A DNA stretch of 64,000 nucleotides from the NCBI GenBank assembly GCA_964016885.1, contig OZ024752.1, positions 31,372,001 through 31,436,000 of the forward strand, in the 5' to 3' direction. The notes under the pieces were generated by a model. That model did not search any database and was not told where the DNA came from. It was given only the letters and a program-made list of their open reading frames with translations. This document shows, piece after piece, positions 44,517 to 64,000 of the stretch; position 1 is the stretch's first letter, and every line of letters starts with the position of its first letter. Both the position numbers and the translations under genes were made by a program. Source of the stretch: Eledone cirrhosa. Lineage: Eukaryota.

Positions 44517-45390
44517 ATGAATGAAGTAATTCCGTCGGAAAAGTCCAGGAAAAAAGAGTGCTCTATGTAGGTAACAGAGCTTAATAGTTATGTAATAAAC
44601 AACATAAGGCAATTATTCCATTTACCAGTGGTTTCTTAAAAGCAAAAAATGTTGCTTTCAATCATCAGAATGAAAAAATCCTGGTCTGTTTATTGAATTT
44701 GGATTTTAAAAAACAAAAATGCAATCTATATGAAAGTGAGGCTGGAGAAGGAAGAAGGAAAGGAAAAATAAAATAAAAACACACATGCAAACACACACAC
44801 ACACAAATGCATACATACACACACACACACATATATATATATATACATACACTCATACATACACACACACATATACACATATATATGTGTATATATATAC
44901 ACACATACACATACATATACACATACATACATACACACATAAATATCAACACATCCATACATACACATACATATATACAACCACATACACATATATACAC
45001 ACATATATATATAAATATAAATATATATATATGCATACACATACATAGCCATACACACATACATATACATACATACATACATACAATCATACCTATATAC
45101 ACACGTACATACATACACATACATAAATGCATACATATGCATGTACAAAATTAGAAAAATATACACACATGCAAATAAATATAAGAAAAAATATATATTT
45201 TTTATTTTATTTTTTTTTTCCTTCTTCCTTCTCCAGCCTCACTTTCATATAGATTGCATTTTTGTTTTTTAAAATCCAAATTCAATAAACAGACCAGGAT
45301 TTTTTCATTCTGATGATTGAAAGCAACATTTTTTGCTTTTAAGAAACCACTGGTAAATGGAATAATTGCCTAATATTGTTTATTACATTA
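44517..45390. mobile_element. Fold-back family G (element X) with hammerheads at 44619-44672 (-) and 45306-45359 (+)
   Basis: Arms about 44590-44780 and 45200-45390; CATT CTGATGA TTGAAAGCAA..TTGCTTTTAA GAAA CCACTGG TA AATG. Confidence 0.88.
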
Positions 45391-45466
45391 TATATATATA
45401 TATATATATATATATATATATATATATATATATATATATATATATATATATATATATATTTATATA

Positions 45467-45801
45467 TAGTGACGAAACATAAGTCAATTGCCTGAACTCA
45501 TAATCCTTTATTTACTGCTATATATATTTCGATGATAGCCATTGAATGGCTATGACCTCATCAAGGCAGTTAGTCAGTTCTTAGATATGCCAGCTCTGTG
45601 TTTATGGTGTTGATGGTATATATAGTGATTTTAATGTCTAATTGGTGTCATACAAGGGAGGTCCGAAGAGCTTTTGATTCCAGAGTCGGTCTAGATCGAT
45701 GCACATCGAACCTTGAGCTGATCAAAGAGCGAAATGCGCGTCACTACTCAATAAACGTAATGAAGACATAACAAATAGTTTTTTTTAATTATTATCATTT
45801 C
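45467..45801. other. 335-bp island with two different hammerhead-like motifs on opposite strands (45514-45570 -, 45660-45745 +); copies at 56436-56771 and 57733-58067
   Basis: Minus: ACTGC CTTGATGA GGTCATAGCCAT tca ATGGCTATCATC GAAA TATATA TA GCAGT. Plus: GGT CCGAAGA GCTTTTGAT..ATCAAAGAGC GAAA TGCGCG TC ACT. Confidence 0.62.
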
Positions 45802-45895
45802 ATATATATATATATATATATATATATATATATATATATATATATATATATATATATATATATATATATATATATATATATATATATATATATAT

Positions 45896-60702: not shown

Positions 60703-62793
60703 ATGGCTACCAAAAAGAAATTTCATACGTCACTCCCACTCATTCCGTCTTCTTCTTCCTCAATCATCACTACAGCAGAGAGAAGATTGTCTCTCTCCCT
60801 CCCTTCTTTAAATGTGTCTCTCTCCCTCCCTTCTCTTTCGCAAGTGACGAAAGAAAAGAAAAGTCTCGTGCAAAGCGTGCAAGGTTTCTCCACGACGACG
60901 ACGACAGCGACGAAACAGGTGTGCGGGAAATACGAAAACCCAGTTCATTCGTCTGACGTCAGGAATAATAGCAGTAGCAGCCGTAATAACAACAGCAACA
61001 GTGACAATGAAAACAACAGTAGCAGCCGCAACAGCATCACCAGCAGCATAAACAACAACAGCATTAGCAGCAGCAACACCAACAACAACCACAGCAACAG
61101 CGGCGGAGGCAGTAGTCGTAGTACCTGCAGCAACAACAAAAGTACCAGCAGCTCTGACGACAACAACAACAGCAGAGAAAAACCAATCTCATTTGCAGGT
61201 ATTGCGAAAAACCTGGAAACAATCCTCATAACAAATGAGGAATTAGAGGAAGCGAAGAAGATGGTGACAAAGAACGGACACCGAGCAATCTGCAAGGCAG
61301 CGAAAAATTTTTTCGAAACCCAAGAGCACTGTACGGTCACGTACCGTACAGTAAGTACAAAATCCCGTAGGGTGGAAAGAGCCACAGAGGCCCAAATACA
61401 AAAAGCCTTGGGGTCTGTGTGGCAGAGGAAAACGCACATCACCCGAGGCAAAAAATACGCCACCGTAGACGTACTTTTTGCCACACCCCAGGAGGCAAAG
61501 GCCCAATCAGTAGTGACCCTAAGGAGCGAGGAAATGGTGTTGGTGCCCTCCTACTGCGGGCAAAAAATTGTGAGGGTCAAACTGACCCACGTCCCCCCCG
61601 GAATGACCCCTTCTTGGCTGGCCGCGTCTGTCCTCGTCGGAATCGAGGACAAAACAACTGTACTGCAAGTACAGAAAAAAGTAAGAGAAGATTGGGTCGG
61701 CTCCTCCATTGAGATGCTAATCCAAACCAACCAGGAGTGCATCGAAGCTATCCCGGATGTGATAGACTTCGATAACGGCACTCAACTGCCCATAAGTGTT
61801 GAGGGCAAACGCCCGAAATGCTTTCGCTGTGGATCGAAGACTCACCTCAGGGCCTTCTGCAACGAGAAGACCATGAGAAAGGAGAAAACCCCCCTCCTCC
61901 CGAATCCGGTTCCACGGCTACCAGCAACAGGACAAGCGGCAACCAGGAACGATAGGTCCGTGGCACCCATACCCACTCCACGGAAATCAAAGACAGCAGC
62001 AGCAGTGGAAATATTAACAACAACAACAGCAATACCAAATGCAGCTGCAACAGAGACTCCAGTGCAAACATCACCAACAACAACAAGTGAAAGAGTGGAG
62101 CTGGTACCCCTCCCCGACCTTACAGAATCAGACATGGAGTGTGAGGTGGGAGAGGGATGGCAAAAGGTCTCAAGAAGGCACAAACGCAGAAGCAGCGCAT
62201 CGTCGCCTTTGAAAAGGGAGGAAAGAAATGAGAAAAGGGTAAAGTCTACTGCAAAGAGACCCACAGCAGCAACACCACCAACACCATCACCACCCACACC
62301 AGCACCACCATCACCACCGGCGACAACCCCACCGCCAACAACACCTTCAACACCACAAGCACCAACATCGCAAACACAACAACAAAACACACACACCCAG
62401 CAACAACGACAAGAAAATAGCAGAACCACACCCCACCCCCAGAAAAACAAATGCACGGCAATAAACACACACAACAAGAAACTAATGACTTACATAATTG
62501 AACACACAGACATTTCACAACAGGACTACATAATACCAGCACCAATCAAAACGCCAACTAACATAAGACTGCTAAAAATAGCACAGAAACAATACACAAA
62601 CATTAAAACGAAATTCCCCAACGCAGTTGGTGATTTCAGGGACCTAGGAGGAACCATTAATCGAAGAGTATATTCAGACATTCTCTTAGAAGAGCCGACG
62701 ACCAGCCGAAGGGACGATCCAACGGTCCCTTCACCAGACGATCAAGTGAAAAGGGATGTAAAAACCATCCCTCCTCTACCAAAAATACGGTAA
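60703..62793 (+). CDS. ORF1 of the second copy (696 aa from ATG)
   Basis: Same protein with a 2-Pro indel and S/P and V/I changes. Confidence 0.88.
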   Translation: MATKKKFHTSLPLIPSSSSSIITTAERRLSLSLPSLNVSLSLPSLSQVTKEKKSLVQSVQGFSTTTTTATKQVCGKYENPVHSSDVRNNSSSSRNNNSNSDNENNSSSRNSITSSINNNSISSSNTNNNHSNSGGGSSRSTCSNNKSTSSSDDNNNSREKPISFAGIAKNLETILITNEELEEAKKMVTKNGHRAICKAAKNFFETQEHCTVTYRTVSTKSRRVERATEAQIQKALGSVWQRKTHITRGKKYATVDVLFATPQEAKAQSVVTLRSEEMVLVPSYCGQKIVRVKLTHVPPGMTPSWLAASVLVGIEDKTTVLQVQKKVREDWVGSSIEMLIQTNQECIEAIPDVIDFDNGTQLPISVEGKRPKCFRCGSKTHLRAFCNEKTMRKEKTPLLPNPVPRLPATGQAATRNDRSVAPIPTPRKSKTAAAVEILTTTTAIPNAAATETPVQTSPTTTSERVELVPLPDLTESDMECEVGEGWQKVSRRHKRRSSASSPLKREERNEKRVKSTAKRPTAATPPTPSPPTPAPPSPPATTPPPTTPSTPQAPTSQTQQQNTHTQQQRQENSRTTPHPQKNKCTAINTHNKKLMTYIIEHTDISQQDYIIPAPIKTPTNIRLLKIAQKQYTNIKTKFPNAVGDFRDLGGTINRRVYSDILLEEPTTSRRDDPTVPSPDDQVKRDVKTIPPLPKIR

Positions 62794-62828
62794 GTGGTCT
62801 TTCCCATCTTTTCCACTCTATTTTAAAC

Positions 62829-64000
62829 ATGACCTCACTCAGAATAGGCAGCATAAATGCGCGTGGCTTGGGGTCGTCATGGAAGCAGGGTCACCTGCTC
62901 AACGACCTCAGGTCACTAAACATAGATGTAGTGGCCATCAGCGAGACCAGAATCTCCGAAGCACGGGCCTTCGCACCGATCTTCGGCGGCTACGATGTGT
63001 ACGCATCTCCCAGCCGTCCTGGATCGGGTGGAGGAGTTGCTGTGCTTTTTCGGAGAGGTTTGGATCTCGCCATACGGGCCATCTTCCTGGACCCAGAGGG
63101 TAAGCTGGTGGTGCTGGACGTGACCAGCGGAGACGGGCAAGCTTTCAGGCTAGTGGCCGTCTATGCCCCGACAGGAGCAGGGCGGCCTGATTTCTTCCGG
63201 CGTCTGGAGACCTTTCTTGGAACGTCCCGCTCTTTAGTGTTAGTGGGCGACTGGAACGGGATCTTAGATGCACGCTGGGACTGTGTGGGATTAGCGGATA
63301 GGGGTGGAGGGTGCAAGAGCCTCACCAACCTGCTCAGGCGTTTTGAACTGTCTGACAGGTACCGATTGGATTTCCCGAATGTGCCAATGTGGACTTGGAC
63401 AAACCGCATAGGGTCATCCAGATCATATCTAGATAGAGTATTTTGTAGGGAAATAGATAGGTCTAGCATAGGCTGTCCACAATTCAAGATAGTCAGCTAC
63501 ACGGACCACAAATTCGTGATCTGTGTGCTTGACTTAGATAGGCTTCATAGACGAGGACCCGGCTACTGGAAGCTAAACGCGTCCTTACCAGCGCGCAAGG
63601 CCTACAGAGACCGGATTAGCGAACTAGTTAAGCGGGCGTTGACGGGGGCCATCGTCAACAACAAGTGGTGGTTTGCTCTGAAAAGAGCGATTAGAATAGA
63701 ATCGATTAGGTTTAGTAAGGCTTTAGCAATAGAGAAAAATAGAGCAGAGGGAGAACTAGTTAGAAAATTAGACGAGGCGCTTAGCAAAGGCATTGCGACC
63801 GACGTGCTTGCGGCGAAATTGGCCCTTGACCAATTCTTCAATGCAAAGCACGAAGGCTGCGTTGTCAGAGCAAGGGTGCGTGCTCTCAGACACGAGGGGA
63901 CGAAAGCCGTTCAATGGGCCCGAGTGGCGGAGGCGCGTCGTGGCAACAAAGCCACGATCCGGTCTTTGGTGGACCACGACGGGCGCATGCTACTCGATCC
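62829..64000 (+). CDS. ORF2 N-terminal part (APE domain and linker), truncated by the window edge
   Basis: ATGACCTCACTC at 62829, mirror of 51671. Confidence 0.92.
   Translation, partial: MTSLRIGSINARGLGSSWKQGHLLNDLRSLNIDVVAISETRISEARAFAPIFGGYDVYASPSRPGSGGGVAVLFRRGLDLAIRAIFLDPEGKLVVLDVTSGDGQAFRLVAVYAPTGAGRPDFFRRLETFLGTSRSLVLVGDWNGILDARWDCVGLADRGGGCKSLTNLLRRFELSDRYRLDFPNVPMWTWTNRIGSSRSYLDRVFCREIDRSSIGCPQFKIVSYTDHKFVICVLDLDRLHRRGPGYWKLNASLPARKAYRDRISELVKRALTGAIVNNKWWFALKRAIRIESIRFSKALAIEKNRAEGELVRKLDEALSKGIATDVLAAKLALDQFFNAKHEGCVVRARVRALRHEGTKAVQWARVAEARRGNKATIRSLVDHDGRMLLD

Follow-up and report, generated by a model that had tools for sequence, protein, structure and literature searches.

The window analysed here, 64,000 nucleotides of Eledone cirrhosa contig OZ024752.1, carries from position 44590 to its right-hand edge a series of blocks repeated in direct and inverted orientation. 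Their layout was obtained by self-BLAST, with low-complexity sequence masked, and by exact alignments:

44590-45388: X1, whole (left arm, spacer, right arm)
44590-44779, minus: X1 left arm, 190 nt; hammerhead-like motif on the minus strand at 44668
44780-45198: X spacer, 419 nt, (CA/TA)-rich; two copies, both forward, forming one duplicated segment
45199-45388, plus: X1 right arm; hammerhead-like motif at 45310; terminates at a (TA)n array
45389-47990, plus: A1, first copy of block A, 2.6 kb, non-coding; ends at the filled LINE site
47991-54015, minus: LINE-, 6,025 nt, L1/Tx1-type, both ORFs open
48252-51671, minus: ORF2 from first Met, 1,139 aa; APE endonuclease, reverse transcriptase (RT), zf-RVT
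50628-52155, minus: zone holding 6/6 differences from LINE+ (5 substitutions, one 6-nt in-frame indel)
51707-53803, minus: ORF1 from first Met, 698 aa; CCHC knuckle, recognized by eye
52156-54015, minus: 5' portion of the LINE, 1.86 kb without a difference between the copies; proposed to conceal the second switch
54016-54245, minus: M, inverted copy, 230 nt of trinucleotide repeats; its (ATT)n tract adjoins the LINE 5' end
54246-56850, minus: A', inverted middle copy of A; its junction with M is an empty site
56851-57650: X2, whole
56851-57041, minus: X2 hybrid left arm; first switch within 56869-57023
57042-57650, plus: X2 spacer (palindrome centre) and right arm
57651-60260, plus: A3, third copy of A, with an empty site at its end
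60261-60490, plus: M', forward copy
60491-64000, plus: LINE+, first 3,510 nt, the rest cut off by the window edge; putative resident copy

The block order X A [LINE-] M A' X* A M' [LINE+], where X* is X2, is confirmed, and the kilobase-scale identity among the repeated blocks is not chance. Exact-match markers occur twice for the spacer, three times for A (one inverted), twice each for M and the 5' part of the LINE (one inverted in either case) and once for the outer left arm of X, where the structure returns to single-copy sequence. These counts and the inverted middle copy of A fit a miniature DUP-TRP/INV-DUP rearrangement, to which a preliminary description of this DNA had likened its architecture. 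The palindrome of at least 13.5 kb that it placed around a fold-back retroelement is likewise recovered, with X2 at its centre. The mirror, first given as 50500-57040 against 57465-64000, aligns as 50500-57023 against 57479-64000. Its halves differ by 5 substitutions, a single 6-nt indel and 2-nt slips in two (TA)n arrays, and it is substitution-free only from 52156 inward (52156-57023). The structure is one locus, and its 2.6-kb triplicated stretch is non-coding. A search of the window for tRNA genes found none.

By its sequence, the LINE has the L1/Tx1-type layout of ORF1 plus an ORF2 with APE endonuclease (Pfam E = 3e-14), RT (1e-28) and a C-terminal zinc motif (7e-8). The closest solved structure to ORF2 is L1 ORF2p (E = 2e-52), and a protein named Transposon TX1 149 kDa matches it at 32%. 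Six ORF2 homologues were found among 7,999 candidates; the closest (79%) has the Ile of LINE+ at the sole informative site, which is too little for use. ORF1 yielded no Pfam family, no homologue among 8,000 candidates and no useful solved relative. A 25-nt pattern from the LINE 3' end had, as expected, 0 matches in a prokaryotic genome collection.

Block A contains three (TA)n arrays and one 25/77-nt minisatellite, in a window that is very rich in (TA)n overall. The array lengths across the A copies (71/73/75, 94/96/96 and 18/18/20) follow no clean pattern, fit either slippage or read error, and give no usable genealogy of the copies. Outside (TA)n, X1A1 and X2A3 show 0 substitutions in 3,153 nt, where 6-32 would be expected at an assumed heterozygosity of 0.2-1%, so the two are unlikely to be two ordinary alleles. 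The end of A occurs once as a filled site and twice as an empty one, which implies at least two physical copies of that end.

The first turning point can be placed within X. The two arms of X1 are 98% complementary, and 56869-57650 is identical to 44607-45388. As the left arm of X2 carries the alleles of the right arm at 56865 and 56868 but those of the left arm at 57024-57025, it is a hybrid, and the switch falls in the intervening 155 nt, which have the same sequence in both arms. The allele pattern thus bears out the earlier placement of one junction in the arms of X.

Regarding the origin of X, its earlier attribution to a Penelope-like element is consistent with the candidate hammerhead motifs and the arm layout. 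A custom hammerhead scan gave 13 matches in the window, 4 of them in the X arms; in 20 local shuffles it gave 0 matches in 19 and 1 match in the other. The motif at 45310 would have stems I/II/III of 7/10/3 bp, and the predicted fold of the X motif is three-way (z = -1.67). The arms are inverted and face outward at a (TA)n target, with direct (TA)n contact for the right arm only. In its outward inverted arms, hammerhead-like core and (TA)n flank, X resembles the inverted 5'-truncated copies and pseudo-LTR hammerheads of Penelope-like elements outlined in PMC8557442. Unlike the elements described there, X has no RT or GIY-YIG ORF (stops interrupt all three plus-strand frames of 45150-45390) and no Rfam hammerhead match, so its family is assigned from motif and layout and it is at most a non-coding Penelope-like remnant. 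Rfam returned nothing at gathering score across the whole window; 44 weak matches in 44100-45500, mostly to miRNA models and none to a hammerhead, were dismissed as chance. A coding element with Penelope-type layout lies at 2931-5180. Inverted amplification accompanies 1 of the 12 fold-back clusters within 1-45.5 kb, which leaves unsupported the broader proposal that such fold-backs generally seed large inverted amplifications.

The predicted fold of the X hairpin is very stable (-233.5 kcal/mol, against -51.7 in 20 shuffles), a property that also favors a contig artefact, conceded as conceivable from the outset. A fold-back chimeric read at X, arising by snap-back in amplification or library preparation, would have been combined with a mis-join in the multi-copy LINE, or one amplified chimera would have given both joins. 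Artificial palindromes from whole-genome amplification do reach assemblies (PMC6218980), ONT genomic libraries are reported to contain ~0.55-0.6% fold-back reads (PMC12870357), and the (TA)n-richness of the window points the same way. However, two chimeric joins 3 kb apart would be necessary, and the centre holds a 419-nt spacer between hybrid arms rather than an arbitrary read end. Moreover, 0 single-base indels over 6.5 kb suggest a HiFi-grade consensus, and in the few samples covered by PMC12870357 fold-back reads were virtually absent from HiFi data. A two-allele mis-join would further need alleles with 0 substitutions in 3,153 nt. On balance an artefact is unlikely, though by a degree that still commands attention.

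The mirror is unequal within the LINE, a point absent from the preliminary description. In the portion of LINE+ inside the window (60491-64000), to which the comparison with LINE- applies, all 6 differences fall beyond LINE nt 1866. Random placement yields a terminal empty stretch this long in 0.05% of cases over the mirror (P ~0.0005) and in 2.2% within the LINE alone (one-sided 1.1%); the clustering within the LINE is modest when an empty gap anywhere counts (P = 0.077). The substitutions (A/T, G/A, C/T, A/G, A/G) comprise 4 transitions and 1 transversion, both ORFs stay open despite the differences, and 0/13 homopolymers of at least 6 nt in the mirror differ between its halves. The 6 differences look like family variants. 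Since all of them lie beyond nt 1866, they argue for two LINE copies and a homologous switch hidden inside the LINE. The best reading is that this second switch lies in the first 1.9 kb of the LINE and that LINE- is a chimera of two family copies, although the window would also allow LINE+ to be the mosaic copy. Chimeras of nascent cDNA with resident L1 were reportedly described by Gilbert in 2002/2005. Damage-type clustered mutation was dropped as a source of the differences, the changes being of mixed type. A 5'-transduced transcript reinserting in cis was also dropped, as it predicts an exact LINE+ copy and a 9-kb upstream-initiated RNA.

The other end of LINE- meets block A at 47990, where the identity of A1 with both other A copies stops exactly; the LINE 3' UTR starts at 47991. 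The precise joining of A to the LINE 3' end noted previously therefore stands, whereas the accompanying view, in which 47990 is itself a template switch and LINE- simply mirrors LINE+, is unsupported in that form, the differences being confined beyond nt 1866. More likely, a further Tx1/L1-type copy was newly inserted here and has its 3' end at 47990. An AATAAA lies close by, with no long poly(A) tail, and since the LINE- 3' terminus is defined by comparison with A alone, up to ~10 nt of microhomology may be present. The 5' junction of LINE- is common to LINE+. Of the three TNATTATTAT motifs in X-A-M, two coincide with LINE ends, one at either end and both in the sense orientation of the LINE, and both visible LINE ends (2/2) adjoin ATT-type motifs, counts to be read in light of few ends and a motif picked post hoc.

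If LINE- instead mirrored all of LINE+, as first described, 47990 would be a microhomology switch or the product of later erosion of a larger palindrome. The AAT-rich end of A would prime on an ATT tract just past the 3' end of the resident LINE, and the 6 differences would arise later, either through gene conversion or because other family copies contaminated the consensus. An AAT-type motif does stand at the A end, the 5' flank of LINE+ makes it plausible that an (ATT)n target duplication follows the element, and 47991 lacks a poly(A) tail. In addition, microhomology is usual at second junctions in the DUP-TRP/INV-DUP cases of PMC11293582, and 10.1101/2023.09.19.558550 proposes that palindromes can erode secondarily. 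This account is nevertheless improbable, as it requires an extra event of at least 1.5 kb and an ATT tract that falls outside the window, and the 6 differences are clustered with none in the inner 4.87 kb.

Very improbable is a scheme with a single LINE, in which a full-length cDNA joins the A end to the opposite strand at the M end, giving A [LINE-] M A' by a retrotransposition-mediated fold-back. The whole arm would then be copied by another fold-back, at X, so that LINE+ is a mirror image followed by A' again. Inverted A copies do flank LINE- on both sides, and PMC11702581 reports from human cells fold-back junctions with full-length reverse-transcribed inserts, among them a triplication between two fold-backs. 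The scheme, however, gives no account of the 6 differences and needs a third junction outside the window for a stable chromosome. The simplest snap-back would presumably also predict an inverted X2 spacer, and the spacer is forward.

Returning to two LINE copies and a hidden switch, the ancestor would have read U X A M L1 D, where L1 (LINE+) occupied the (ATT)n tract that closes M before the events began. Target-primed reverse transcription at an ATT-type motif 230 nt upstream, on the opposite strand, would then insert L2, a second copy of the same Tx1/L1-type family, giving the 47990 junction. As nascent cDNA or finished insertion, L2 could pair with the oppositely oriented L1 on a chromatid without L2; synthesis would switch within LINE nt 1-1866 and return through the L1 5' end, M, A and the X right arm. 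A switch between the 155-nt identical arms of X, whose junction is visible in X2, would restore the original direction. The product would carry the spacer twice, the right arm and A three times, and M and the LINE twice. Read on the minus strand, the turn at X would be an ordinary snap-back and the turn in the LINE the rescue of that fold-back; the sequence would fit either order of these two steps. Precedents are found in PMC11293582, PMC10622511 and PMC11702581. Two insertions 230 nt apart plus a chromatid without L2 are required. LINE+ is predicted to end near 66509. Overall, the case for a real inverted triplication of very recent date, arising from two homology-guided turns with one retroelement at each, is evenly balanced.

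The closest counterpart, by our mapping, is haplotype structure 3 of DUP-TRP/INV-DUP (PMC11293582), a conformer in which the triplication is inverted and so is the non-recurrent duplication. Shared with it are the 2-3-2 copy pattern (relative to the putative ancestor), two junctions, a chimeric inverted repeat at junction 1 and direct duplication of the inter-repeat segment; one patient there has a retroelement-mediated (Alu-Alu) junction 2. Here, in contrast, the arms are identical over 155 nt and lie 419 nt apart, against LCRs of ~11 kb, the triplication is ~2.8 kb, the LINE is the only gene amplified, and the structure is known from assembled sequence alone. For junction 2, which would lie unseen within 52156-54015 or else at 47990, a LINE copy missing from the other two site copies seems to have been used. 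Yeast and human cells are known to form fold-backs at short inverted repeats that are then rescued at a repeat, and fold-back fill-in with a template switch at a repeat is discussed in PMC10622511 and 10.1101/2023.09.19.558550. As in the ODIRA and the yeast fold-back inverted duplications that undergo homology-mediated secondary rearrangement, as treated in these two sources, a palindrome surrounds a pre-existing interrupted inverted repeat and a dispersed retroelement repeat lies at the second junction. Unlike in those accounts, rescue leads back to the locus itself and not to translocation or telomere capture, and the arms derive from a transposon and far exceed 3-15 bp. Fold-backs and duplications mediated by L1 retrotransposition (PMC11702581, 10.1101/2024.08.27.596794, PMC9977147) resemble the locus in having a rearrangement junction at a LINE 3' end and a target-like motif, the apparent lack of an ordinary short target duplication, and the doubling of local DNA around the insert (X A insert X A). 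They differ in that here the second breakpoint would be distal to the nick and within a resident LINE, a poly(A) tail is missing, and the element is an invertebrate Tx1/L1-type LINE. The available portion of PMC5105311 holds no relevant precedent.

The type of rearrangement is already known, and the weight of this example is limited by its being a single locus with no host gene amplified, by precedent for every mechanistic step and by the appreciable chance of artefact. It is distinctly unlikely, though conceivable, that a single germ-line retrotransposition built everything and that both retroelement classes are a recurrent source of inverted triplications with the second breakpoint hidden in a LINE. 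An active Tx1-type LINE that targets (ATT)n would supply a cDNA that invades a resident copy 230 nt off on the sister chromatid, and replication would run backwards until turned round at a Penelope fold-back. The setting would be about one fold-back per 4 kb, with site-biased LINEs piling up in opposite orientations.

If real, the locus would offer a base-resolved, nearly unaged inverted triplication with a retroelement product at each of its two turning points and an intact palindromic centre; the available part of the ODIRA survey (10.1101/2023.09.19.558550) lists no human case with unambiguously intact arms. It would make one sharp prediction for the next 2.6 kb past the window. It would also show how the end of a young LINE can be mistaken for a breakpoint that is in truth concealed inside the element.

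The window is animal DNA, rich in AT, with (TA)n arrays as its dominant feature. In it, masked self-BLAST and exact alignment were used to set segment borders. They bear out the order and palindrome architecture proposed in the preliminary description, which can be read directly from the following segments.

Segments of the proposed rearrangement
44590-45388: X1, first copy of the fold-back element X (two inverted arms and a spacer)
45389-47990: A1, first copy of the non-coding block A
47991-54015, minus strand: LINE-, an L1/Tx1-type element
54016-54245: M, repeat-rich segment, inverted copy
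54246-56850: A', inverted copy of A
56851-57650: X2, second copy of X
57651-60260: A3, third copy of A
60261-60490: M', second copy of M
from 60491, plus strand: LINE+, oppositely oriented relative of LINE-

The mirror halves are 50500-57023 and 57479-64000, and marker segments occur twice (X spacer, M, LINE 5' part), three times (A) or once (outer left arm). The single-copy side is marked by an older fold-back (44145-44492; arms 82-93%) situated 100 nt before X.

The arms of X are 190 nt each, 98% complementary and spaced 419 nt apart, with a computed hairpin energy of -233.5 kcal/mol; the spacer is forward in both copies. Four positions distinguish the arms, two outer and two inner. The left arm of X2 is hybrid: it carries the bases of a right arm at the outer two (56865, 56868) and those of a left arm at the inner two (57024-57025), and thus one switch lies within 155 identical nt, in line with the junction first proposed in the arms of X. 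A hammerhead-like core, its stems measuring 7, 10 and 3 bp, is present in every X arm. Of the 13 such motifs that a custom scan detected across the window, 4 belong to X arms; local shuffles gave none in 19 of 20 cases and one in the other. The predicted fold of the arm RNA is a three-way junction with a z-score of only -1.67, and an Rfam search returned no hammerhead match. Inverted truncated copies, hammerheads and a (TA)n bias are described for Penelope-like elements (PMC8557442). With no ORF of its own, X is most aptly described as a putative Penelope-type remnant.

LINE- is 6,025 nt long and contains two open reading frames. ORF1 (51707-53803, minus; 698 aa counted from Met) shows a CCHC knuckle by eye; Pfam gave no match for it and 8,000 candidates yielded no homolog, whereas ORF2 (1,139 aa; APE, RT and zf-RVT) has a 79% relative. 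The best solved relative of LINE- is L1 ORF2p, and LINE- shows 32% identity to a protein that bears the name Transposon TX1 149 kDa, the class being read from matches rather than a tree.

The mirror is present, but its outer part carries differences overlooked in the preliminary description: five substitutions (50628, 50980, 51715, 51781, 52067) and one 6-nt indel near 52150, all within the LINE past nt 1866. Between 52156 and 57023 the halves show no substitutions and just two 2-nt (TA)n slips. For six differences placed at random, the frequency of so empty a terminal stretch was 0.05% across the whole mirror and 2.2% across the LINE alone (7.7% with the gap allowed anywhere); confinement to the outer mirror is thus strongly supported, and avoidance of the LINE 5' part moderately. 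In kind, the differences resemble variants that separate copies of one family: four of the five substitutions are transitions, the 6-nt indel keeps the frame, both ORFs remain open, and the 13 homopolymers are all unchanged. Most simply, LINE- would be a chimera, the 3' part of a second family copy (L2) joined to the 5' part of the resident LINE+ (L1); a fold-back involving a single LINE seems very improbable.

On this reading the second breakpoint, previously placed as a template switch at 47990, would move into the LINE. The 47990 junction would then read as an L2 insertion end. On the LINE sense strand it runs AATAAAGAAA, then TCATTATTAT, at the end of A. The empty site is retained twice, at the A/M borders, and an (ATT)n tract precedes the LINE+ 5' end; both LINE ends are directly visible. 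Counting both strands, X-A-M contains three TNATTATTAT motifs in all, two of them at these LINE ends, the motif having been picked post hoc. For Tx1-clade elements, simple repeats are often the preferred target (PMC4494074). Against an insertion end, LINE- lacks a long poly(A) at its 3' end, and its true terminus may take in some of the ATT motif. Because the site is filled once and empty twice, the end of A must exist physically in two copies or more. Across 3,153 non-(TA)n nt, X1A1 and X2A3 show no substitutions, against the 6-32 that an assumed heterozygosity of 0.2-1% predicts, so the copies derive from one very recent haplotype, as would be expected of a sister-chromatid event and not of a join between two ordinary alleles.

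From an ancestor U X A M L1 D (U and D being outer flanks), L2 would have inserted at the A/M border in the orientation opposite to L1. A homologous switch from L2 to L1 inside nt 1-1866 would follow; synthesis would then run backwards across M, A and the right arm of X and finally switch between X arms. Viewed on the minus strand, the X junction would be a plain snap-back, with rescue later at the LINE. The same product would result from one coupled event, from a heterozygous insertion already finished, or from an earlier triplication later eroded by L2-L1 recombination, and these are indistinguishable here; we give this family of models about an even chance. The DUP-TRP/INV-DUP fit recognized at the outset stands in order and copy number, with the second breakpoint on this reading inside the LINE; the full mirror first proposed, coupled with a microhomology switch and later conversion, appears improbable. 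An artefact of sequencing or assembly is a rather unlikely but tangible alternative: amplification-made palindromes get into assemblies (PMC6218980), and fold-backs make up ~0.6% of ONT genomic reads, but virtually none of HiFi reads in the few samples reported (PMC12870357). Two joins would be required, a hybrid repeat with a 419-nt spacer forms the centre, and single-base indels are missing from the consensus, which together lower the artefact risk while leaving some.

Chimeras of cDNA with resident L1 were reportedly described by Gilbert in 2002 and 2005. DUP-TRP/INV-DUP shares the 2-3-2 pattern, the chimeric repeat and the direct duplication between repeats; its structure 3 likewise inverts the triplication plus the other duplication, a mapping that is our own reading (PMC11293582). 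Yeast provides established cases of a fold-back at a short repeat followed by rescue at a retroelement repeat (PMC10622511), ODIRA offers a replication route (10.1101/2023.09.19.558550), and LINEs are known to generate fold-backs and long duplications (PMC11702581, 10.1101/2024.08.27.596794, PMC9977147). Neither a Penelope fold-back seeding an inverted triplication nor the combination of X with a LINE appeared among the matches listed in a narrow search of titles and abstract openings, with few subscription papers.

Fold-backs are plentiful in the window. Twelve local clusters lie in 1-45.5 kb, five with a hammerhead-like motif, and only X (1/12) sits at a kb-scale amplification junction. Fold-backs are dense enough for one to lie close to any break, so a single case is no proof of a special role, and the general proposal that they seed amplifications is not upheld. 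A coding element at 2931-5180, flanked by long (TA)n arrays, has the layout of Penelope-like copies, being 5'-truncated and accompanied by an inverted copy of 710 nt (99.86% identity). Its ORF (3414-4505, minus) resembles by eye an RT C-terminus, Cys linker and GIY-YIG endonuclease, with no significant Pfam match. Nested fold-backs occupy 43116-44039, where an 80-nt stretch (~43430-43509 and 43850-43929; 95% identical) flanks a second fold-back (43606-43797) in the manner of a target duplication of unusual length. Hammerhead-like motifs also occur at 12689, 24091, 30270, 34613/34772, 35477 and 39921/40107; they comprise at least three sequence types, and several lie in fold-back arms. One element with such a motif has two copies (24009-24915 and 35396-36043; 93%) that differ in copy number of a 60-nt satellite. 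Elsewhere, 829-1870 is a 3' fragment of another LINE with a weak RT match and (TA)n on its flanks, and 22651-23730 holds a ~520-nt tandem duplication (98.6% identity). A SINE-like stretch at the end of A hints at an octopus-like host. Among recent insertions in O. vulgaris, L1-Tx1 accounts for 421 and Penelope-like elements for 336 (PMC13282606); if this host is octopus-like, both classes involved here may belong to recently active lineages.
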